From the NCBI GenBank assembly GCA_905250115.1, contig CAJNOI010000182.1:108962-154209 (forward strand): a DNA stretch of 45,248 nucleotides. Direction: 5' to 3'. The translations under genes were made by a program, and so were the position numbers. Origin of the DNA: Adineta steineri (lineage: Eukaryota). The first letter of the stretch is position 1. Every line of letters begins with the position of its first letter. Positions 2,372-44,216 of the stretch are shown in pieces. The notes below the pieces were generated by a model. The model did not search any database, was not told the DNA's origin, and was given only the letters and a program-made list of their open reading frames with translations.

Positions 2372-3360
2372 TCACTTTTGCTCATCATCAACATCTTGAA
2401 CGTCATTGTTAGCGTTCTCATTATCACCAGGCATGTCAGTTGTCCACAATGTGAGGTTATCTCTTAAGAGTTGCATAATTAATGTTGAATCTAAATATCA
2501 ATAGTTTGATAAATTTTTCAATAAAATTAATTCAAACCTTTATATGTATCCTCATTAAGAGTTTCTAACTCAGCAATTGCATCATCAAATGCCTAAAAAA
2601 AAATAGATTGAAAAACATTTATCTTTAGTTAATAGAAAAATTACTTGTTTAGCTAATCGACAAGCTCGTTCTGGTGTATTGAGAATTTCATAATAAAATA
2701 CCGAAAAGTTTAATGCTAAACCAAGTCTTATTGGATGTGTTGGTGGTAATTCATTTTGTGCAATATCATTTGCTTTTGTATATGCAACAAGTGAATTTTC
2801 AGCTGCTTCTTTACGATCTTCTTGTGTAGCAAATTCAGCTTTGTAACGATGATAATCACCTTTCATTTTTAAATAAAAAACTTTACTTTCACCTGATGCT
2901 GCATTTGGTAAAAGATTTTTATCAAGTAAATCAAGAATATCTTGACAAATATCACGTAATTCTTTTTCAATCTAAAAACAGACTGATCGGTTTTTATTGA
3001 CTCAAGGAAAGAAATTAATTCAAACAAACCTGAGAACGATATTTTTTAGTAAATGCTATTTTACTACTCTCTGATTTACTTTCTTCTTTACTTTCAATAT
3101 TGGTAACAATACGCCATGATGCTCGTCGTGCACCAATTAAATTTTTATATGCAACTGAAAGTAAATTACGCTCTTCAACTGTTAATTCTTGATCCATTTT
3201 GGCAACTTTTTTCATAGAATCGACCATTTCTATTTGATTAATAAATATTTGTTTTATAAAATTTTATAAATAAACAAACATTGATTTATTTACCTTCATA
3301 ACGTTCAGCTTGTTCAGCCAATTTAGCTTGATAAACATCATCATCACGTGAAGCAGGCAT
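2372..3360 (-). CDS. 14-3-3 protein (epsilon-like), 5 exons, 255 aa.
   Basis: Exons on the minus strand are 3294..3360, 3030..3229, 2645..2971, 2538..2592 and 2372..2490. All introns are GT..AG and 47-64 bp long. The spliced product is [62 protein letters not shown]...[14 protein letters not shown]...[86 protein letters not shown]... It carries the canonical 14-3-3 signature blocks. Confidence 0.93.
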
Positions 3361-5259: not shown

Positions 5260-5746
5260 TTAATAGACGAGTTGTTGAGCCATTGGATGATACATTTGGG
5301 GTTGACTTTGAAAACTATTTGTTGGTGTACCAACTGCATTACCAGCAGCCATCATTGGCATACCACTTGGAATCATTCTACCTTGTTGCATCATTGGACG
5401 ATAACCATAAGACATTCCTTGATGTGCTGGATACATATATTGTTGAGGAATATAACTTGATGGTAATGGTGGAACTGATTGAGCGGCCATTTGAGGCATA
5501 GATGATTGCATTTGAACAGGTCGATACATTATTTGCTGCTGTACTGGTTGTTGTTGCATCATACCCATTTGTTGCATTGGCTGCTGTTGCATGACACCCA
5601 TTTGTTGCATTGGTTGTTGTTGCATGACACCCATAGATTGTACTGGTTGCTGCTGCATGACACCCATCGATTGTACTGGTTGTTGTTGCATGACGCCCAT
5701 AGGTTGCATTTGTTGCTGTTGCATTTGTTGTTGTTGCATTTGTTGC

Positions 5747-5780
<34 letters not shown>

Positions 5781-6736
5781 GCATTTGCTGTTGTTGCATC
5801 ATACTCATAGGTTGTACTTGTTGTGATGCTGGCATCATCATCATTGTTGTTTGCGGAACATTGGATGACATTTGTGCCGATGGAGTATATTCAAAACTTG
5901 ATCCTGAAGAAAAACTCGGATCATTATCATTTGTACGATATACTCTTGGTCGTCCAGTCGAACCTGCAATTGAATGGGTTCGATAGGTATGACCACTTGT
6001 CATAAGACCATTTGATATTGAAGGTAATCCATTACATGGATTGCCATATGGTGAACCTGGTTGACTATAACCACTACGAAGTGGACGGTCGACTTTGATA
6101 ACTCTAATGATAGTTAATATTTGTTTGATTAAAATAAAAGAATAAGAAGAAAAATTTACCTTGTTCGAACAATTGGTGGTGGTGCTTCTTCTTGCATTTC
6201 TTTTTGAATTATACGTGGTGGTGGTGTACGTGGTTGTTCAATAACACGTTCAACAATTTCCTGAGCTTGTGGTCGAATAATAACCTAATCAATTAAAAAT
6301 ATAAAACTATTCTATTCTAATCTATTTTATAATATTGAATGCATACCCGTTCCATAACAGGTGCTTCAGGTGTTGGGGCTCGTTCAACGACTCGTTTAAT
6401 AATTGGTGGTGGTGTTGGTGCTCGAACAACATCACGCGGACATCGTTTTTCACGTGTAATCATTCGACCACGATATTCATAGTCATCATCACTACAACTA
6501 TCTGATGAAAATGATCCTGGTGAATATGATCGACTATTAAAAATATTCAAGAATAAATTTTATATGAAAAAAAAATAGACAATTAATTACCGTCGTCGAC
6601 GATGATCATATCCATTTGTTGAGAGACTGGTAGGATATCCAGCAGATAACATTGATGGATCAACACCATAACCGTTAACGCCAGGTGTTGCACCTACAGT
6701 TGATGTTCCATTTGGATAAACATAACGATAGGACAT
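5260..6736 (-). CDS. Gln/Met/Pro-rich low-complexity protein (prion-like), 4 exons, about 433 aa, function unknown.
   Basis: Exons are 6591..6736, 6347..6533, 6160..6284 and 5260..6103. The N-terminal region (MSYRYVYPNGTS..., then RAPTPPPIIKRVVERAPTPEAPVMERVVIRPQAQEIVERVIEQPRTPPPRIIQKEMQEEAPPPIV) is ordinary sequence. It is followed by a long MQQQP / GVMQQQPVQSM repeat array and a poly-Q tract of 20, encoded by (TTG)n on the plus strand at 5700..5790. Confidence 0.6.
5700..5795. repeat. (TTG)n/(CAA)n trinucleotide tract, coding (poly-Gln).
   Basis: The run of ttgttgttg... lies inside exon 4 of the Q-rich gene. Confidence 0.85.
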
Positions 6737-7572
6737 TTCTTTTTTGATATACACACTCGAACAAAGTGATGTGTTTGTATTAATGCGAAGAGAATGTTAT
6801 TGAACAGATCAGTACTTTCACTTGTTGACCGTCTCCGTTACGCTTCAATTCACCGTATACACCTAGAGATAATGATCATTTATATGAAGAGAAATATGCT
6901 CATACCAAAAGAAAATATCAAGAAGACGAGACGATGACCTCCTCGTATCTTTCTATTATTCGTTTTATATATATCAACACGACACAAGGTGAACATATGA
7001 ATGTTTTTATTCATAGATAAATCAAAAAGAAAAATATTGAACTATTCGATACATTCCTTTCTTTCTTTCTCTTCTTCATTCTAATATCAATATTTTTCAC
7101 AATCTATGTCAAAACTCAATTTAATTTTGATATTATATAAGATACCAAAGAGGTCACGGTTAATAATGATAATAATAATAAAATATCATATGTAGAAGAT
7201 AATGGCATATACTCAATCATTGCTTTTTTGTTGGTTTTATGATTGATTATTAAATACATATAATAAGCATTGTATCATTCTATTAATAGAAATGCTATTT
7301 TTCATAACTATAAAAATATATTTCTTTCTATAAGCATTTAAATTAATAGATTTGTTTTTTTGTAAGTTTTTTTATTTGTAGAGAAGAAAAATTTGGAGAT
7401 AAAATCCCATCTCATGGTTCTATTGTCCTTATTCATATTATCCAATACACACGTAGAATAGAAATTCTATACACACACATATACATTGATGTAGTAGAGA
7501 ATTCAAAAATGAAAAATAAAATGTGTGTGTTTATGATAATATTTTATATAAATATTTTTTTTTTGCTTTATT

Positions 7573-7887
7573 CTATTCCACACTTCGTTTACCGAGACCG
7601 GATGCAAATTTAACTGATGCTAGTCGTTTGCCCAAGCCTGAAGCGAATTTTGCCGCTGCTAAACGTTTGCCAAGACCACTAGCAAATTTAGCTGATACTA
7701 ATCGTTTTCCAAGTCCACTAGCGAATTTGGCTGCAGCAAGACGTTTGTCAACATCAAAATCTTCTGAACTTCCATCATCTCCTTGTTCATCACTATGTAC
7801 GATTAATGTTGATTCAACGATAGTATTGAAATAGAAAAGAAATAGAACGGTGAGAAGACCAGCAATAAAAACGAATTTTGTCTGCAT
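7573..7887 (-). CDS. Neuropeptide precursor (104 aa) with a signal peptide, an acidic spacer and four copies of an x-x-x-x-KFASGLG unit separated by dibasic KR sites.
   Basis: It is a single-exon ORF: MQTKFVFIAGLLTVLFLFYFNTIVES (hydrophobic signal) + TLIVHSDEQGDDGSSEDFDVD + KR-LAAAKFASGLG-KR-LVSAKFASGLG-KR-LAAAKFASGLG-KR-LASVKFASGLG-KR-SVE. Each unit ends Gly-Lys-Arg, the signature of prohormone-convertase cleavage followed by C-terminal amidation. The predicted products are xxxxKFASGL-amide. The four 39-nt DNA repeats differ mainly at synonymous positions. Confidence 0.7.
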   Translation of the reverse strand: MQTKFVFIAGLLTVLFLFYFNTIVESTLIVHSDEQGDDGSSEDFDVDKRLAAAKFASGLGKRLVSAKFASGLGKRLAAAKFASGLGKRLASVKFASGLGKRSVE

Positions 7888-9904
7888 AATTTGTTCGTAA
7901 TAATAAATAATAGAATAATATTGATGGAATATAGATGTTAATATTAATTGCTTAATAGAAACTGAAAGAAAAATAAATGAAAATTTAATTCTAAAATTTA
8001 TTATCTACAATCAACGTCATAAGAAACAACGAGATATTAATATAGTCACAAAAAAGAAATGCTCAAAACACTCTCTGCCTGAAGGGATAACATAGAAGTG
8101 GCACAATAAGACACACTCACTCTATAGATTTTGGAATGTGTATGTGTCAGCAATAACGATATATGAATAAAGCGTGTTCGACACCAATTTTTTTTTTTGC
8201 ATAGAACTTCTATATGTCGGTTTCCGCAAAGATAAACAGCTCTACACTTTCTCTTCTTCTCTCTTCTCCTCTTCTCTCTCTCTATCTTATTCTTTTTTTT
8301 TTATTCTTGTTATAATGAAAAGCAACAACAACAATAACAGCTAAAGGGTACCATATGAATTGAATATGAACGTCTCAACAATCGACACTAGTTCTGTTTT
8401 ATTTGCCCTCGTCCGTTCATCTCCTTCAAGCTTTTCATGTTCATTAGAATCATTATAAGACATGTTCAGACAAGTGCAAACATCAAGAAAAAAGAAATTG
8501 TGTTCAAGGACAGATGATACCTTACATAAATATCCGAACTGATTCAATCAATGATTTATACATATAAATAAAGCTACAAATTTTTTAGTAATGAATGACT
8601 AAAAATAGTTAACAAAGCAAAAGATTGATTTTTCATACAAAAGAATAATATAGAAAATGTCGAAGGATCTCTTAATCAAAATACTGGAATCTATACAATA
8701 CATTGAATTGAACTACATATGAAAGAGTTCGAAACTTGTTATTATTTGTTCGTATTATATTATTATTATTATTTGATGAATTACAATAAATATATCGACT
8801 ATATGAGAAAATTTCATATTTTCTTCGAATTTGTTTTCATATGATTACGTCACTATTCGTAGGAGGAGTGCATAACTTACCTTTACTGTCAAAACATGTC
8901 AAAAATGCACTTCCTTTCGGATTAAGACTATCGGAAGAAATCAAATATAACTGTTTACATGTATTTTCTTCAAATGAGACAGACAGCAAAGCAAGAAAAA
9001 AAAACATATTGTGATCTTTTCCTTTTTCTATACTGCAGTTTTGATTTGAATCTATTTATATAACAGCACAAATTTGAATGATTATATAGAGAAACATTCA
9101 TTGTTCATTAGATAGAAGAATAAATGTAAAACTCTACTATTATTTCTTGTTACTATTCTATCAATAATTAGAATATGCAATGCACATGTCAAAGAACTAC
9201 TCCTCTGGCTTTGCTCGCCTGATCTATTTCATAAAATATTGATCATGTAGATAGTTGCAACAAAAAAGGAAATTAAAGAAAACAATTATATTCTTCTGTT
9301 ATTTTTTCGTTCATGATCTTTCTTTATGAATCATGATACTTCAATTCGATATAAATATTTCATTAGATTTTTAAATAGAATCAATACTTGTTGAATTGAT
9401 TTTTTTTTGTTTATTAGAATATTTTCATTCAATTGTACAAAATGATATTACAGAAAATAATTAGTAAAATTATATTATTTAGCATGAATATTGTTTACGG
9501 AAGGGGAAAATTATACGGTAGATAGAATTTTTCTATTTCATATTCATTATTATTATCATCATCAATTTTGTTCTTATTTTTATTTTCATGTTACATTAAA
9601 TAACTGACAAAATGTAGAGTTAAATTCAAATCTATGGAATCTATCTTACACTCAATCAAGGTCTTTGTAGCATAGTTTATATGAGAGACATGACTTTATC
9701 AAAAATAATCTCATTAGATACAACTACTGTTAACTCAAGAAAATTAGTTAGATATAAGAGTATTTTCGAGTATGAATTGTTAGAATAGCTTTTATTCATT
9801 GCCTTGATGTTCTTCATACAACTAAATTTTAATTGTAGATTTCAGTTGATGTTATTAGATTCTTCTATATGAATTAACTTATAACAGTTTAATTATCTTT
9901 TCGA

Positions 9905-12286: not shown

Positions 12287-12568
12287 CTAATGTTTTTCTT
12301 GTTGTTGAAAATTATCCATATCATTGTTGTTCATTGTTGATTCATCTAAAGATCGTTTCCAGAATTTACGAGGTGGTGCACGTTTCCAAAATCGTGATTT
12401 AGCTGCACGTACATTTAGAAAATGAGTTGGATAATAAGAATCAAATTGATTCCAATCACTATTAGCAGTTGCATAATCATCGTTATCTAATGAAGAACTT
12501 GATGAAAGTGTAATGCCAATTAAAGCAATAAATAAACATAAAATAGTATTAATCAATGTCATACGCAT
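12287..12568 (-). CDS. Hypothetical secreted peptide precursor (93 aa) with paired dibasic sites.
   Basis: It has an N-terminal signal-like segment, MRMTLINTILCLFIALIGITLSSSSS. It then has ...FLNVRAAKSRFW-KR-APPRKFW-KR-SLDE.., giving two KR-delimited peptides that end in R/K-F-W. This is weaker than the 7573..7887 precursor because no Gly precedes KR. Confidence 0.3.
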   Translation of the reverse strand: MRMTLINTILCLFIALIGITLSSSSSLDNDDYATANSDWNQFDSYYPTHFLNVRAAKSRFWKRAPPRKFWKRSLDESTMNNNDMDNFQQQEKH

Positions 12569-17801: not shown

Positions 17802-19447
17802 TTAAACAGCAAACATTTGTGGGACATATAGATCCGAATCATTTAAAGATGTCGATAGATCATCAAGACCAACAAGACCATTATTGCCACTGCTACCATT
17901 TATAGATGACGATGGATCGGCTGTTGTTCCAGATGAATCACTAGTACCATTTGGTGCATACATAGTCGCATAAAGACGACGCTAAAAATTAAAAAATAAA
18001 AGTTTACTTATTAAAATATTGTTTTGAAAATAAAATAAAAGTTTCTCACTTTTTTTGTTTCATTCTCCATTACTTCATATGGATCTGTATACAAATCACA
18101 ATGTAAATCATTATGATTTGGTAAAAGTCCACCAAGATTAATATTCGAATTTGAATTACCACCACCGGTTGTATATATATGATGTAAATCTAAATGTCCA
18201 TGATGTATATGATGATGAAGTTCACTATGTGGTATCGGTAACGGTTGAGCTAATGAATGATGTTGTTGTTGTTGTTGTTGTTGCAAAAGATGATGATTAA
18301 CATTCATTTGCTGCTGCTGCTGTTGAGAAGGATCTATATAAGGTAATTCGATCAGTCCATTTTTACCTTTATTCGTTGTTACTAATGTACGTCGTACAAT
18401 GGGTCGTAATTTATACAAAGGTGGTTCAGGTGTATTTGCTGTGATACATTTTGGACATAGCCATGTTTCCGGTATATCATCACTGAATACACCTTCATTT
18501 GTAGACGTATCTGGATGAGCACTCTAATATAAAATAACATGATATTTATATAAGAAAAAGAATAATTCAAAATTAAAATATACTTTAAAACATACATGAA
18601 AACATGGTAAATGATGTATTTCCATGCAACGTTCACATTCATATAGGATTTCTTCTGGTTTTAGTTGTGATAATTTTCGTGAACCTTTCTTTTTTGAACA
18701 TATTTGACAGGAAGCTGTTGATGGTAATATTGGCGCAATACATTGTTTTGTTAAACAACATTGTTTCATTTTACCAACACCACCAAATTTTGGCATATCT
18801 TTACAATGTACACATTCAGAACAATCATCACGACAACATGGTTCACATTGCTTACAACTATTTAAAATGTATTTTTTTTTATAATATAGAAATACGAATG
18901 CAAAAAAACAAATAAAATCATACCGAACACGTTTATGTCGATCTTTTGCAGTAGATGTTTTATCTGTACTTGTCGGATAATGTTGTTGTGTGGGTGTTGG
19001 AGGTGATGTTGCTGTACTATATTGATTATTTCCATTTGTATGATGATAATTGATAACATAATGTTGTTGCTGTTGTTGTTGTTGTTGTTGTTGCTGCTGT
19101 GCTGCATAATAGTTAGCTAAATTCGATTGTGTTTGTTGTTGTTGTTGTTGAGATGAATTTGAACCAGCTAATGGTCCACTTAAAAGGATAGTTGCAGATG
19201 GATGTAGTGTAACAACATTTGTAGTTGTCTGTTGTTGCATTGTTAATGTATCATATTGATGATGATGAGAAGGATGATGTGACGATTGTTGTGGAGTATG
19301 AGGATGCTGCTGCTGATGCTGATGATGATGATGGAATGACGAATGATGTTGCTGTTGCATATCGTCACTACCCGTACTGCTCTTACGTTTTATGCCTCGT
19401 AAAGTCTCCGTTATTGTTGTTCGTTCGTTCTGAAACATATGATACAT
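17802..19447 (-). CDS. CXXC-type zinc finger + PHD-like finger protein, Gln/His-rich, 4 exons.
   Basis: Exons are approximately 18924..19447, 18596..18858, 18050..18522 and 17802..17981. Exon 2 encodes CKQCEPCCRDDCSECVHCKDMPKFGGVGKMKQCCLTKQC, a canonical CXXC domain with a KFGG core. That is followed by a C4HC3-like finger, CQICSKKK...LYECERCMEIHHLPC...WLCPKC. The flanking regions are poly-Q/poly-H low complexity encoded by (TTG)n. Confidence 0.72.
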
Positions 19448-31399: not shown

Positions 31400-34300
31400 A
31401 TGAGTAAAACAACTACTGCAAGTGATACTAAAAGTCATTCAAGTCCAGTTTATCGAATTCCACCTTATCATTATATTCATGTATTGGATCAAAATACAAA
31501 TGTTACACGACTTGAAATTGGTCCCAAAACATTCATTAAACAAGATAATGAAACAGTTATTCTTGGACCCGAAAAGATGATCACAGTACCGTATGTAAAA
31601 AAGAAATGCAAATAAATAAATAATTATTTTAAATCTTATTTCAGACCACGTCATTATTGTGTTGTTGAATCACCTGTAATACGCAATGAAGCTGGAGAAG
31701 TAGAATTTGATGAAAATGGTCAAGCTAAACTTATTCATGCTGATTTGGATATTCGTCTTGCACAACCTGATCAAGCACCATTTCCACTTTATCCTGGTGA
31801 AGTTCTTCGTCAAGTATAGGATTGAAAAAATTTTGTTTAAGAAATAATATCAATTATTAAATTCTTTTTTAGCCTGTTACTCCTTTAAAAGTTGTACCTG
31901 CTAATTCAGCATTACGGCTCAAAGCTGTACTTGATTTTGATGATGAAACTGCTAAAGAACAACGTCGTGCTGGTGATGAATGGTTATTTGAAGGTCCAGC
32001 TACTTATATTCCACGTAAAGAAGTTAGTGTTGAGGAACAAATTCGTGCTACAGTTATTGGTTCTAATCAAGCCATTCGACTTTGTGCAAAAAAAGAAATT
32101 ACTGATCGTACTGGTCAACATCGTGTCACTGGTGAAGAATGGTTAGTTAAAAAAACCGGTGCTTATTTACCTCTTGCATATGTAAGTTAAAAAATTACTT
32201 TTATTAATACTAATTAATTATAAACTAAACATTATAGGAAACAGTTGTTTCTGTTGAAAATGCTCATGTATTAACCGATAAAAAAGCTTTACAACTTCGT
32301 GCATTAAAAACATTTACTGATGATTTTGGTAAAGAACGTATGAATGGTGAAGAATGGCTTATAACTTATCTTGATACAGAAACACATATACTTAGTGTTT
32401 ATGAACAATTAGTTGCTGTTGTTGATGTAATAACACTTAATTCTCGTCAATATTGCGTTATAATTGATCCAGTTGAAGATGGAAAACAACAATTAGGAAA
32501 AAAAGTTTGTTATCAAAAATTTTTGTTTTGTATTTTAGAAAAGTTAGAATTTTTTTAGAAACTTATTCTTGGTGAAAAATCATTTTTTCTTCAACCTGGT
32601 GAAAAACTTGAAAATGGTATTCAAGATGTTTTTATATTAGGCGCAGATGAAGGTGTTATACTTAAATGTATAGAAGCATTTGAAGATCAACAAGCTAATG
32701 TAAAACGAAATCCTGGTGATCGATGGATGATTCGCGGTCCAACGTAAGATATGGATTTTTATTTAATTTTGAAAATTAATTTAAAATAAATTTTTAGTGA
32801 ATATATTCCTCCAACACAAGTTGAAGTTGTTACACGTCGAAAAGCACTTCCACTAGATGAAAATGAAGGTATCTATGTTCGTGATATAAAAACGGGTCGT
32901 GTACGGGCTGTTATTGGTGAAACTTATATGTTAACACAAGACGAAGAACTTTGGCAAAAAGAATTACCTAAACAAGTTGAAGATTTATTAACACGTGATG
33001 CGTTAGTTGATCGAAATATTCCAACACGTAATAGAACAACTGATAAAAATCAATCTCAACAAGAAACTACTACTAATTCAAAATCAAATGCAGTTAAACG
33101 TGATAAATCTAAATTAGTTACATATCGTGTTCCACACAATGCATGCGTACAAATTTATGATTATAAAGCTAAAAAAGCACGAATTATTTTTGGTCCTGAA
33201 CTTGTTATGCTTGGTCCAGATGAACAATTTACATTACTTTCATTAAGTGGTTCTGTACCAAAAAAACCTAATCAAATTCAATCACTTTGTTTATTATTGG
33301 GACCCGATTTTTTTACTGATGTTATTGTTATTGAAACAGCTGATCATGCTCGTCTTTCTCTTCAACTTTCATATAATTGGCATTTTCAAATTACTGACAT
33401 CAGTGATGAAAAAGAAGCTGCAAAACTTTTTTCAGTACCAGATTTTATTGGTGATGCAGCTAAAGCTATTGCTTCTCGTATACGTGGTGCTGTTGCTGGA
33501 ACACAATTTGATGATTTTCATAAAAATTCAGCTCAAATCATTCGTGCAGCTGTATTTGGTCTTGATGCTAATCAACAAATTCGACAACATTTTATTTTTC
33601 CACAAAATAATTTAGTTTTAACATCAATTGATATTCAAAGTGTTGAACCTGTTGATCAACGTACACGGGATGCACTTCAAAAAAGTGTTCAATTAGCTAT
33701 TGAAGTAAGAGGAATTATTCTAATACAAATATCTAAAAGTAAAAATAAATAATTTAGATTACAACAAATTCACAAGAAGCAGCTGCTAAACATGAAGCTT
33801 CACGTCGAGAACAAGAAGCTAAAGGTTTATTAGAACGACAACGTATTAGAGATGAAGCTGAAGCTGAAGATGTTCGAAAACAACTTCTTCAATTACAAGC
33901 ATTATCAGCTGCTGTTGAATCAACTGGTCAAGCTAAAGCTGAAGCACAAAGTCGTGCTGAATCACATCGAATTGAAGGTGAAGCAGCTGTTGAACAAGGT
34001 ATGAATAGAAATTATTGATGATAAAATTTTCATATAAAAAAATTATTTTTATTTTAATTAGCTCGTCTTAGAGCAGAAGCTACACGTATTGAAGCTGAAG
34101 CTGAATTATCACGTTTGAAATTAGCACGTGAAGCTGAAATAAAATTTTTACGTGAACAAAATGAATTAGAAATTAATAAAAAAGCTGAAATGTCAAAAAT
34201 TGAAACTGAGAAATTTACATTACAAGTTGAAGCGATTGGAGCATCAACCATTCAAGCAATTGCTACTTCTGGTCCAGATACACAAGTTAAACTTTTACAA

Positions 34301-34462
34301 GCACTTGGTCTTCAATCAATGTTGGTTACTGATGGAAATACACCTATTAATCTAATGGGTTTTGGACAAGGACTTTTAGGTGGTTTAACTGGAAATACAA
34401 ATAAAAAATCTAGAACAGCTACTAATACTTCTAGTAATTATCATATTGAAGAGAATGATTAG
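31400..34462 (+). CDS. MVP: Major vault protein (MVP), 8 exons, 889 aa.
   Basis: Exons are 31400..31590, 31644..31812, 31873..32181, 32238..32504, 32559..32743, 32798..33704, 33758..33998 and 34062..34462. All junctions are GT..AG and in frame. The product is collinear with vertebrate MVP throughout: [209 protein letters not shown].. and the C-terminal coiled-coil cap. Confidence 0.93.
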
Positions 34463-36187: not shown

Positions 36188-36574
36188 ATGGCTGGATCAT
36201 TTATTTTCACTGAAGAAAATGAATTAGCAGCAGCATATCTCAATCGTGCCCAACATGCCAATGCAATTGTAGACGATGCTGGTTTTTATTATGACAAAAG
36301 CATCAAGTTATCAGACAAGAAACGTGCTGATTTGTTTGTAGATAATGGTGAATATGTTATAGTCAAGAGTGAAAAATGTCTTGAAACAATTTGTATTGTT
36401 CGTGGCGATAACACATGTCTCAATGATCGTATTCGACTAAATACCGTTGTAACAGACAATTTACGTGTATATTCTCGTGATTTTGTTACAATTCATAAGT
36501 GTGGAAATGTTCCAGATGGTAGCCATATATATGTTTTACCGATTGGTTATTCTGAACACGGATCAAGTAGTTGA
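36188..36574 (+). CDS. Stand-alone CDC48/VCP N-domain (double-psi beta-barrel, Nn subdomain) ORF, 128 aa. It may be a remnant first exon of a decayed VCP paralog.
   Basis: MAGSFIFTEENELAAAYLNRAQHANAIVDDAGFYYDKSIKLSDKKRADLFVDNGEYVIVKSEKCLETICIVRGDNTCLNDRIRLNTVVTDNLRVYSRDFVTIHKCGNVPDGSHIYVLPIGYSEH.. aligns with p97 residues about 20-115: [96 protein letters not shown]. It terminates before the Nc subdomain and has no ATPase domain. Confidence 0.6.
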   Translation: MAGSFIFTEENELAAAYLNRAQHANAIVDDAGFYYDKSIKLSDKKRADLFVDNGEYVIVKSEKCLETICIVRGDNTCLNDRIRLNTVVTDNLRVYSRDFVTIHKCGNVPDGSHIYVLPIGYSEHGSSS

Positions 36575-38239: not shown

Positions 38240-40522
38240 TTACTTATACAACGAAGGAAAATAACGACATAAATCTTCCGAATGCACCACTGGTTCTATC
38301 GAAGTTATTTTTGTCACCTTAGCACAATTGCGTCGTGTTTCTTCCCTAGTAAAGTCTTTTGTTACAGTTTTTAAATCATCAACATAGACTTCAAATTCAG
38401 TCAGACAAGGTACGAATGTCTTTGTTTCATTTAGAAATTGATCAATATAATCTCTATGTGCAGATACGACACCAAGTACAGTCAGATGAGGATATTCAAT
38501 AATCGACTGTAATAGACAATTTTCAGATGACAATGTCATAAGACCATTTAAATTTTGTGATTTTTCATTCCGAATAAAAAGATGCTTGAGTAACGGAAAC
38601 GATCGGGCAATTCGCATGAAGAATTCATGTTCGAATGGAATAATATCTTGTATAACTAAATAGGTAACATAACTAAATACAATATTTGGAAAGTTATTGC
38701 CAATATCTCGGAGATAATCAAATCCAAAAGGAAGTGAGAAAACGGAGCATGCAGCTCTCACACCATAAATACAATTAACTTCACTAATAACATAATTGAC
38801 CATACTACTGACATGTTGTTGTCCAATATTTCTTAATTTTATTCGAATATCTTCACTTGATAACTTGCAGGATAAAACAGCTGGATCAACATAAGTACAA
38901 ATATAGAAAGTGAATGAACGAAGTTGTGGCATATAATCCAAAATATCATGTTGAACATAAGTACCACCAATAACTCTATTTCGACCTTTTATAGAAATAT
39001 TTAGAGTTAACTTTTCCAGATCTGACATACGACGAAGAAGTAATACAACTTTATCATATTGATATAATGGGCAGGACGATTTTAATGAGAAACATTTTAG
39101 ATTCAATAATTTATCCTACAAAAAGAAAGAAATGTTTTTTTGATAATCTATAAGATTAAGTCATTGGCATCATTATTTTACACATGATATATCATCTATA
39201 TTCTATCTGTGAATGACCACAAATGACAAATCTATTAAATTGATTTTCTCATTTTATAGCACAACAAACGAATGTTAAAAGAACAATCAAAGCTTCAGAC
39301 CGCAAACTTTCGATCATATCTGAATTATTAGAAAAATTGTTATTATAGAAAAACTTTCGTTCCATCCAATGCTGATGATCATTCACATATGATAATATTT
39401 GATCAATCATGAAACAGAGTAGTCCAGTTTTTAATGTGAACTATATTCGATAAAATATTATATAGTTATAATTTCTGGCTACAAATTTCATTGGTTCGTT
39501 TATTAAATTGTAATTTCTACTACCTACAAACTAAATGTTGATGATTTTGATATATTCCTCAACACGAATATTTTTTTCTCCTTATCAAAATAAAACTTAA
39601 ACTTTCAATCTTATCTCAATTTTTTGAGATCAATCGTTAACTGCATTGAAATAGCCGTAATCTTCGTGGCATAAATGAAATTATTTGTAACAACTTACCA
39701 TATTGCGAACACTCTCTGAGTGTGTGTCTATATAATAGACATTAACACACAATGTTGCCAATTTTTTAAGTCGACCATCAAGTAAATAAAGACAATCACC
39801 AAAAGTTTCGACATTGATATATAAATGAGTAAGAGTCGAAGATGAAAAAGTAGTCGATGGCAAATAACAAAGTGATAAAGGTGGACATGACCTAACAGAT
39901 GGTTCTATGATACTTAATTTTTTTAAGTTTTTGAAAAAGATCAAGATGTAAGCATATACATTATCAGTATATATCTTCGGGAAATATTCCTTGTTGTATT
40001 TATCATCATTGATAAGAATAAGGTTTGTAATTTGTTCTTGAAAAATAGATCGAAGTGATGATTTATCTAAAGGAGAAAAGTGATGTATTGAAACATATTA
40101 TTCTTCTTTCATTTGTAACTCTTTTATTATTTCTCAACTAATCAAAGTCATATTAAATGCTTACTTGTAAAATAGTTTGAAGCGATTTCTTCTTGGAAAT
40201 GAAAAATTGTAAGTTTAGTTAAATTTGGATAGTCAGTAGCAAGAAGAATACGTTCCATAAACATTGGATCAAAAGCAAAACATTTCACATTGTGATGAAT
40301 TCTTGGTAATATATCACTGCAGAATCGATCGATGATAGAAATATTATCAATGGAAACAAACTTGAGAATGTTGCTGAAAATATTTTCTTGTGCAAGAATG
40401 TTAAGTCGTCCATCATTCATATCCAATAAAGAATATAGTATATCGATATTGTTCAAGTACTTCAAAATAATAAGCAATATTTCATTAGGTAAATCCAGAA
40501 GATGAGCATTCGATCGGTTCAT
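38240..40522 (-). CDS. F-box protein (N-terminal F-box, long C-terminal region of unrecognised type), 3 exons, about 530 aa.
   Basis: Exons are 40165..40522, 39699..40066 and 38240..39115. The N-terminus MNRSNAHLLDLPNEILLIILKYLNNIDILYSLLDMN is a textbook F-box (LP.EIL..I..YL). The downstream exons are collinear in frame. Intron 2, at about 583 bp, is unusually long for this locus, so a missed exon or a two-gene split cannot be excluded. Confidence 0.65.
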
Positions 40523-42654: not shown

Positions 42655-44216
42655 ATGAAAATGGCTGCAAGTAATAATGATGGTAAATATGAAACTGTTC
42701 CTGTAGCTGATAAACATGCCGGTGATGAATTACAAGTTGAAGATCAGAACGACGAGGACCATAATACTGTTGTTCTACCAGCTCAATTATTGCGAGATAT
42801 ATTCGATTCATTTAAGAAACTTTTCATCATCATTCATCATCAAGTACATGATAAATCTCTTGTATGCGTTGGTAAAACGCAGAACGTTAGATTAGCTCTT
42901 CCTGGTCCAAAAATGAAAATGAGTCGTGTAATAAGGAAAAATTTGAATATATTATTAAATGATGTTGTGACATTTGACGCATGCCAAAATATTATAGAAG
43001 GTGAACGTCTTGAAGTCGCACCCATTTATGATACCATTAATGGATTAACAGGAAGTCTATTAAATATTTTTTTAATACCATATTTTCGTATTAAAAATCC
43101 TGGTCGACCGGTGAATCAAGGTGAATTTTTTATTGTTCGTGCAGCTATGCGTGCTGTAGAATTTCAAGTTATTAAAACTGTACCAGAACCGTATTGTATT
43201 GTTGGACCCAAAACAAAAATAGTTTGTAAAGATGTTCCAGTTAAACGTGAAGAAGTGAAATCATCGTTGAATGAAGTTGGTTATGATAGTATTGGTGCTG
43301 TAAAAAAACAACTGGCATCAATTAAAGAAATGGCTGAATTTACATTACGACATCAACCATTAATTAAACTAAGTGGTGCTACACTGGCACAACGTATTCT
43401 TCTCTATGGACCACCTGGCACAGGTATAACAAAAAGAAATCTTATTTTATTAAGAAAAAAAATGTTTTATATTTTAGGGAAAACATTGGTCGCACGTGCC
43501 GTGGCAAACGAAACAGGTGCATCATTCTTTTTAATTAGTGGACAAGAAATGATGTCTAAATTAGCTGGTGATGAAGAAGTAACATTAACTAAAGTTTTTG
43601 AAGAAGCTGTAAAAGTAAATACATAATAGTTTTTTTTAAATAATTAAAATTAAGAAATTATTCGGTATTATTTTATTTATAGAAATCTTCAGCCATCATT
43701 TTCATTGATGAGCTCGATGCTATCGTACGAAAACGTCAAAATACACATGGTGAAGTTGAATGTTGCATAGTATCACAATTATTAACAATAATGGAGAATC
43801 TTAAACAACATTCACATGTTCTTTTTATGGCTGCCACAAATCAACCAAATGACATTGATTCAAAACGATTTGGTTTTAATCTCGAAGTTGATTTGAACAT
43901 AGCCGATGATGATGTTAATGGTCGTTTAGAGATCCTTCTTATACATACAAAAAATTGGAATCTACATCATGATGTTAATTTAGAACAGATTGCTAAAGAA
44001 ACACCCGGTTATGTTGGTGGAAACTTAGTCTCATTATGTTCAGAAGCTTATTTACAACAACTTCGAGAAAAAAAGGATATTTTTGTTCCAGGTCAAGATA
44101 CATATCCTGTTGAAAAACTCGATTTATTATGTATTACTGAAGAAAATTTTCGAGTTGCATTGGAGCTATCAAAAAAAACAGTTCTACGCAAATCTGTTTC
44201 AAAGAAAAAAGACTGA
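42655..44216 (+). CDS. VCP/p97/CDC48-like AAA+ ATPase paralog, truncated to N domain + D1 domain (no D2), 3 exons, 477 aa.
   Basis: Exons are 42655..43423, 43478..43608 and 43683..44216. Splicing of intron 1 (54 nt, gtataac..ttttag) restores the Walker A P-loop GPPGTG|[14 protein letters not shown]. The product aligns with p97 from the N domain through D1: ..[241 protein letters not shown]... It stops where the D1-D2 linker would begin. Confidence 0.85.

Follow-up and report, generated by a model that had tools for sequence, protein, structure and literature searches.

Buccalins, known from molluscs and annelids, correspond in lophotrochozoans to the allatostatin-A of arthropods (FGL-amides; Pfam PF05953). 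Both are amidated peptides encoded in multi-copy precursors; buccalins are 10-11 residues long and end in F/Y-x-x-G-L/I-amide. The strict allatostatin-A motif has been defined as Y/F-X-F-G-L/I-amide, while the Aplysia Buc/AstA receptor, apBuc/AstA-R, is activated by 19 buccalins with the common sequence FXXGL/I-amide (PMC12509031). The same analysis suggested that amidation at the C terminus is critical and that Asp at position 2 influences potency (PMC12509031).

Allatostatin-A was first reported from rotifers in the NP-HMMer preprint, in which four rotifer proteomes were mined, families were assigned bioinformatically with a custom HMM and rotifer precursors were run through SignalP 6.0 (bioRxiv 10.1101/2024.07.20.604414). 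Its precursor from Brachionus plicatilis, Bpli20339, contains AIDKMRFYGGL-, LDRMRYFGAL- and LDKMKYFGGL-amide (10.1101/2024.07.20.604414). Bdelloid sequences labeled 'Allatostatin-A' appear in supplementary figures S7, S9 and S10, comprising Aric33919 from Adineta ricciae, Rsoc7983 and Rsoc31746 from Rotaria socialis, and Dcar12455 and Dcar11442 from Didymodactylos carnosus; apart from the A. ricciae orthologue, these printed sequences match homologues P0003, P0023, P0028 and P0035 of the present analysis (10.1101/2024.07.20.604414). Literal searches of main texts in the literature did not turn up KFASGL, FASGLamide or SGLamide, and we located the family only in the supplements of this preprint.

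Here we analyzed a window of 45,248 nucleotides, the whole stretch of DNA under study, from contig CAJNOI010000182.1 of the bdelloid Adineta steineri. The window contains a gene that is real and belongs to a family already catalogued in 2024 as rotifer allatostatin-A/buccalin. Because this family is known from three other bdelloids and the A. steineri protein is public, the window adds an orthologue and further detail rather than a discovery. The evolutionary detail consists of the pattern of selection, synteny and a conserved upstream acceptor. To our knowledge, rotifers and other Gnathifera are the least-sampled spiralians for neuropeptide signaling. An allatostatin-A/buccalin-type precursor with a derived FASGL-amide end helps to trace the divergence of Y/FxFGL-amide and FxGGL-amide peptides, and it supplies concrete peptides for receptor deorphanization and functional work in asexual, desiccation-tolerant bdelloids.

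Architecture of the precursor

The gene is a complete single-exon coding sequence at 7573..7887 that begins with ATG, ends with TAG and encodes a prepropeptide of 104 aa that reads, in order of translation, MQTKFVFIAGLLTVLFLFYFNTIVESTLIVHSDEQGDDGSSEDFDVDKR, LAAAKFASGLGKR, LVSAKFASGLGKR, LAAAKFASGLGKR, LASVKFASGLGKR and the tail SVE. A preliminary description of this DNA had reported a 104-aa ORF with a hydrophobic N terminus, an acidic spacer and four tandem KFASGL units, each followed by KR, all of which we confirmed in this interval. That description did not give the strand; the ORF lies on the window's minus strand, as does every feature of the gene described below.

A signal peptide was heuristically predicted at residues 1-26 (MQTKFVFIAGLLTVLFLFYFNTIVES; 7810..7887), with a basic n-region (K4) followed by a 20-residue uncharged hydrophobic stretch (maximum KD(11), 2.78). 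The best (-3,-1) cleavage site by the same heuristic lies after residue 26, between VES and T, and is kept in the Adineta and Rotaria orthologues. The acidic spacer occupies residues 27-47 (TLIVHSDEQGDDGSSEDFDVD; 7747..7809) and contains eight Asp or Glu residues and no Lys or Arg. It is followed by the first dibasic KR cleavage site (residues 48-49; 7741..7746), at which R49 is invariant and K48 nearly so in an alignment of 20 homologues.

The remainder consists almost entirely of four units, namely LAAAKFASGL-G-KR (unit 1, 7702..7740), LVSAKFASGL-G-KR (unit 2, 7663..7701), LAAAKFASGL-G-KR (unit 3, 7624..7662) and LASVKFASGL-G-KR (unit 4, 7585..7623), with the predicted products LAAAKFASGL-NH2, LVSAKFASGL-NH2, LAAAKFASGL-NH2 and LASVKFASGL-NH2, respectively. 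The C-terminal tail SVE and the TAG stop complete the sequence (7573..7584). A KR lies directly before unit 1, and every one of the four units ends in G-K-R, whose Gly is the putative amide donor; in 20 homologues these positions vary little or not at all. When the protein sequence was shuffled 100,000 times, not one shuffle reached its four G[KR]R sites in 104 aa.

At the nucleotide level, Tandem Repeats Finder identified a period-39 array of 3.8 copies with 75% matches. Seven of the nine codons of the core KFASGLGKR vary among units, each with two or three synonymous codons, and the Ser codon switches between AGT and TCA/TCC. The pooled pS among the four units is 0.72, which is near saturation, versus 0 amino-acid differences in the core, bearing out the earlier proposal that synonymous divergence around an invariant core reflects selection on the peptide.

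Genomic context and expression signals

The A. steineri annotations give the gene one exon of 315 nt that overlaps no other gene model. Its synteny with a polyQ/acetyltransferase gene and a 14-3-3 gene is kept from Adineta to Rotaria. Transcripts were sought among short contigs from Logan, ENA and JGI (P0029, P0002, P0021 and P0005) with no sign of any; two of these contigs come from metagenome assemblies, and none has a poly(A) tail, two Logan contigs included. Directly after the stop codon, an AATAAA hexamer (7567..7572) forms a candidate polyadenylation signal, which is weak evidence in a genome with a GC content of 28% (about 28% in the window). The hexamer is found at or near the stop in three of the four other species compared and is absent there in R. 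socialis.

Roughly 75 nt upstream of the ATG lies a polypyrimidine tract with TTTCAG (7962..7980; AG at 7963-7962). The tract and its acceptor-like AG are conserved in all five aligned bdelloid species and are followed by a conserved TT(T/C)CTATTAAGCA. Bdelloids use spliced-leader trans-splicing, and the element is probably an acceptor, with a 5'UTR intron and a spliced-leader trans-splice site as the candidates; it would define a 5'UTR of 74 nt (7961..7888). Adineta and Rotaria share about 0.6-0.8 kb of alignable non-coding DNA upstream; the blastn matches that contain it have 72% identity and cover the coding sequence as well. This upstream DNA is conserved to about the same degree as the synonymous sites of the gene.

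Conservation and selection among bdelloids

An NCBI 'unnamed protein product' from A. steineri matches the window protein at 100% identity, and over its first 18 kb the window shows approximately 97% identity to three A. steineri assemblies. A protein search revealed 34 further homologues (E below 1e-18). Those with a species name are all bdelloid (Adineta vaga, a second A. steineri copy, R. socialis, R. magnacalcarata, R. sordida and D. carnosus), with the remainder drawn from environmental metagenome and Logan assembly sequences. In all 34, a signal peptide and an acidic spacer are followed by 4-5 LxxxKFASGL-G-[KR]R units, so the GKR-delimited repeat, whose conservation in homologues the preliminary description had left to be checked, is kept throughout.

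In an alignment of 20 sequences, the units never vary at K, F, A, S, G, L and G or at the flanking R and L. FASGL followed by Gly occurs in nearly every unit of the homologues, with FASAL in one A. ricciae-type unit. The C-terminal tail is SVE, NAE or DMD among homologues, and several orthologues have no tail and end in ...GLGK-stop, a typical end for the last copy in amidated-peptide precursors. We compared dN/dS among A. steineri, A. vaga, R. magnacalcarata and one more distant Logan bdelloid, revealing between-species values of 0.04-0.14 for the units and, where synonymous sites were unsaturated, 0.23-0.40 for the signal peptide and spacer. Purifying selection is concentrated on the peptide units and not on the signal peptide or spacer.

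The bdelloid precursors printed in the NP-HMMer preprint follow the same plan as that of A. steineri: their signal peptide starts MQT(K/Q)F..., and the acidic spacer leads into 4-5 LxxxKFASGL-G-KR units. They belong to one family with the A. steineri precursor and are almost certainly its orthologues. The A. ricciae precursor includes a unit LAAAKFASGL-G-RR, the peptide of which (LAAAKFASGL) is identical to that of A. steineri. A. steineri itself lies outside the four proteomes of the preprint, and its copy has four units and the SVE tail.

In each named bdelloid species the precursor exists as two diverged copies (P0001/P0030, P0003/P0023 and P0028/P0035), a pairing that fits the degenerate tetraploidy of bdelloids. 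The A. steineri copies, P0001 and P0030, share 76% identity, and the R. socialis copies contain five and four units. No recorded contig came up when the A. steineri paralogue P0030 was looked up by exact sequence.

Predicted processing and products

The 104-aa preproprotein would enter the secretory pathway by way of its N-terminal signal peptide, which would be cut after Ser26, and prohormone convertases would cleave after KR48-49 and after each unit's closing KR. A carboxypeptidase would then trim the C-terminal Lys-Arg, and peptidylglycine alpha-amidating monooxygenase would turn the exposed Gly into a C-terminal amide. Cleavage, trimming and amidation of this kind are established prohormone biochemistry. 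Four decapeptides would result, comprising two copies of LAAAKFASGL-NH2 (computed [M+H]+, 947.567) and one copy each of LVSAKFASGL-NH2 and LASVKFASGL-NH2, which are isobaric (both 991.594). Their presumed target is a rhodopsin-type GPCR from the allatostatin-A/buccalin (galanin/kisspeptin-related) receptor family. The ORF, its layout, conservation and pattern of selection and its similarity to allatostatin-A/buccalin precursors are shown directly by the sequences, and we infer processing, amidation, neuronal expression and receptor identity. That the gene encodes a genuine secreted, multi-copy amidated peptide precursor is very likely, and comparative evidence from the architecture, the dibasic and Gly sites, selection and the open sense ORF supports its earlier interpretation as an amidated multi-copy neuropeptide preprohormone.

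Relationship to allatostatin-A and buccalin

One point of the preliminary description needs correction. It did not recognize -KFASGLamide as a named family, but the NP-HMMer preprint places these precursors under Allatostatin-A of rotifers, and the peptide fits FXXGL/I-amide. The strict Y/F-X-F-G-L/I-amide motif is absent from the KFASGL peptides, which have Ser and not Phe at -3, and the broader F-X-X-G-L/I-amide motif is present in all four units (F-A-S-G-L followed by Gly). Pfam returned no significant family for the window protein, with PF05953 (Allatostatin) unreported. On the orthologue P0003, PF05953 scored 12.6 bits versus a gathering threshold of 33.5, and on the Brachionus precursor it gave no match.

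The bdelloid peptides resemble those of monogononts. Brachionus LDKMKYFGGL-amide and bdelloid LASAKFASGL-amide both have L1, K5, an aromatic residue at position 6, G9 and L10, and bdelloid and monogonont decapeptides in general have in common Leu1, Lys/Arg5, aromatic 6, Gly9 and Leu10-amide, together with their length and precursor layout. Like the bdelloid gene, buccalin and Brachionus precursors are multi-copy and yield amidated peptides of 10-11 residues with an F/Y-x-x-G-L/I-amide end. However, buccalins and Brachionus peptides have Gly at -3 where the bdelloid peptides have Ser, and the Asp at position 2 ('LD' or 'MD') that is typical of both is absent from the bdelloid peptides. The bdelloid precursor is also far shorter, at 104 aa versus 505 aa in Aplysia, and has copies that hardly differ from one another. 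Arthropod allatostatin-A resembles the bdelloid peptides in its multi-copy amidated organization, the aromatic residue at -5 and the Gly-Leu-amide end, but its Phe at -3, which is counted in the critical FGL-amide core, is Ser in bdelloids. We also considered the molluscan LASGLVamide peptides (oyster MMDPLASGLV-amide), which are amidated and have the tetrapeptide A-S-G-L in common with the bdelloid peptides; we rejected them, as their Val-amide lies one residue further on, the aromatic residue at -5 is missing and the register differs.

We searched a profile of 20 bdelloid proteins against 1.84 billion representative proteins, revealing 124 non-bdelloid matches. Of these, 85 were dominated by [FYW]xxG[LIMV]-Gly-dibasic units (44 canonical [FY]xFG[LI] allatostatin-A and 41 buccalin-like), and none belonged to an unrelated amidated family. 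Canonical allatostatin-A precursors were among the best non-rotifer matches, and a homologue from Brachionus calyciflorus (P0094) was recovered at E = 1.7e-6. The similarity consists of a 5-9-residue motif and the GKR periodicity, for which convergence is possible on sequence alone. Cluster look-ups of the non-rotifer matches gave no informative names. A word-prefiltered reverse search from the Brachionus precursor retrieved monogonont-type buccalin-like proteins only, the one named being from B. calyciflorus, and no bdelloid protein, an outcome that the word prefilter makes uninformative. Because of the residues shared by bdelloid and monogonont peptides, the fit to FXXGL/I-amide and the profile matches, we file the gene as buccalin/allatostatin-A-type with a derived motif. 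The ORF is probably the A. steineri orthologue of the bdelloid allatostatin-A/buccalin-type precursor, and would be processed to four amidated decapeptides.

An alternative is that the peptide is a genuine amidated neuropeptide of a bdelloid-specific family that converged on F-x-x-G-L-amide, is not orthologous to allatostatin-A/buccalin and signals through a different receptor. This would account for the Ser at -3, the subthreshold PF05953 score, the missing buccalin-typical Asp2, the confinement of species-named KFASGL precursors to bdelloids, the reverse search from Brachionus without bdelloid matches and a similarity that covers only a handful of residues. We nevertheless consider it unlikely, if credible, given the five positions, length and layout common to bdelloid and monogonont decapeptides and a bdelloid profile that retrieves allatostatin-A/buccalin-type precursors almost exclusively; moreover, neither NP-HMMer nor the profile search found any other allatostatin-A/buccalin candidate in bdelloids. 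It is doubtful that KFASGL-amide constitutes a bdelloid-specific system with its own receptor and that its gene may, in addition, form a conserved two-gene peptide locus with the FW-KR precursor at 12287..12568 described below.

Two further readings depart from a neuropeptide function altogether. The same processing could yield a multi-copy peptide that is secreted for some role outside neurons, for example as an antimicrobial or defense peptide or an environmental signal, and the predicted products are indeed short and partly hydrophobic as well as cationic, with a charge of +2 when the amide is included; multi-copy KR-delimited precursors also serve some host-defense peptides. Yet the peptide is almost frozen across the bdelloid genera sampled, as the dN/dS of its units indicates, which is typical of receptor-constrained neuropeptides and not of fast-evolving defense peptides, and its motif fits a known neuropeptide family, making such a role improbable. 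The remaining possibility is that there is no gene here, only a 39-bp minisatellite that is open by chance, or that the real gene is a 103-aa ORF on the opposite strand (7523..7834, plus strand), which has a GTG start and no signal-like features. Tandem DNA repeats can yield spurious ORFs on both strands, and the antisense ORF is long. However, the sense ORF is open in every orthologue, whereas the antisense frame contains eight stops in D. carnosus and five in L005; in the sense frame, the great majority of differences among the repeats are synonymous, and the gene is syntenic across genera. We rejected the plus-strand ORF as a mirror of the repeat whose frame breaks down in distant orthologues, and regard the no-gene reading as having next to no chance of being correct.

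A neighboring precursor-like gene and other families

A second small precursor-like gene of 93 aa lies on the same strand, 4.4 kb from the allatostatin-A-like gene (12287..12568, minus strand). It encodes a signal peptide (MRMTLINTILCLFIALIGITLSSSSS) and an acidic spacer with an invariant DW, followed by R-AAKSRFW-KR-APPRKFW-KR-S, giving two units of the form ...RFW-KR and ...(K/H/R)FW-KR. We identified 34 homologues, of which all those with a species name are from Adineta, and the loci of A. vaga and Rotaria hold syntenic copies. Among the homologues, R-A-x-x-S-R-F-W-K-R and R-x-F-W-K-R-S do not vary. Because the units have no Gly before KR, the predicted Trp-ending heptapeptides would not be amidated. 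The protein has no Pfam match and 'FWKR' is absent from the NP-HMMer supplements, and we regard the gene as a candidate for an undescribed bdelloid peptide precursor.

Other coding sequences in the window include long polyGln/His-rich exons with (MQQQP.Q)n-type repeats in neighboring genes (5260..6003 and 18011..19447, both minus strand). One of these genes, at roughly 5260..6700, is the precursor's conserved syntenic neighbor, with a weak acetyltransferase domain annotated further on. Inspection of ORF translations by eye suggested fragments of 14-3-3 (2585..2866, minus strand), major vault protein exons (32928..34462, plus strand), two CDC48/VCP-like AAA ATPase genes (36188..36574 and 42655..44216, plus strand) and an F-box and LRR-like pair (38240..40522, minus strand), among which 14-3-3 alone is confirmed, by precomputed Pfam annotation.

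Outside the window, the bdelloid profile also retrieved a sizeable family of multi-copy precursors with AWNSGF(A/S/T/N)GG(M/L/V)-G-KR units, often after GWN..GY-G-KR units (P0036, P0037, P0039, P0042, P0045-P0049, P0053-P0055, P0058, P0060 and P0061). The motif has no name in the sources, and a literature search returned nothing relevant to it; these proteins may represent an uncharacterized buccalin-like family of some animal group. Their source assemblies are from JGI, Logan and marine sequencing runs, and one member, P0036, contains AWNSGFASGL-G-KR.
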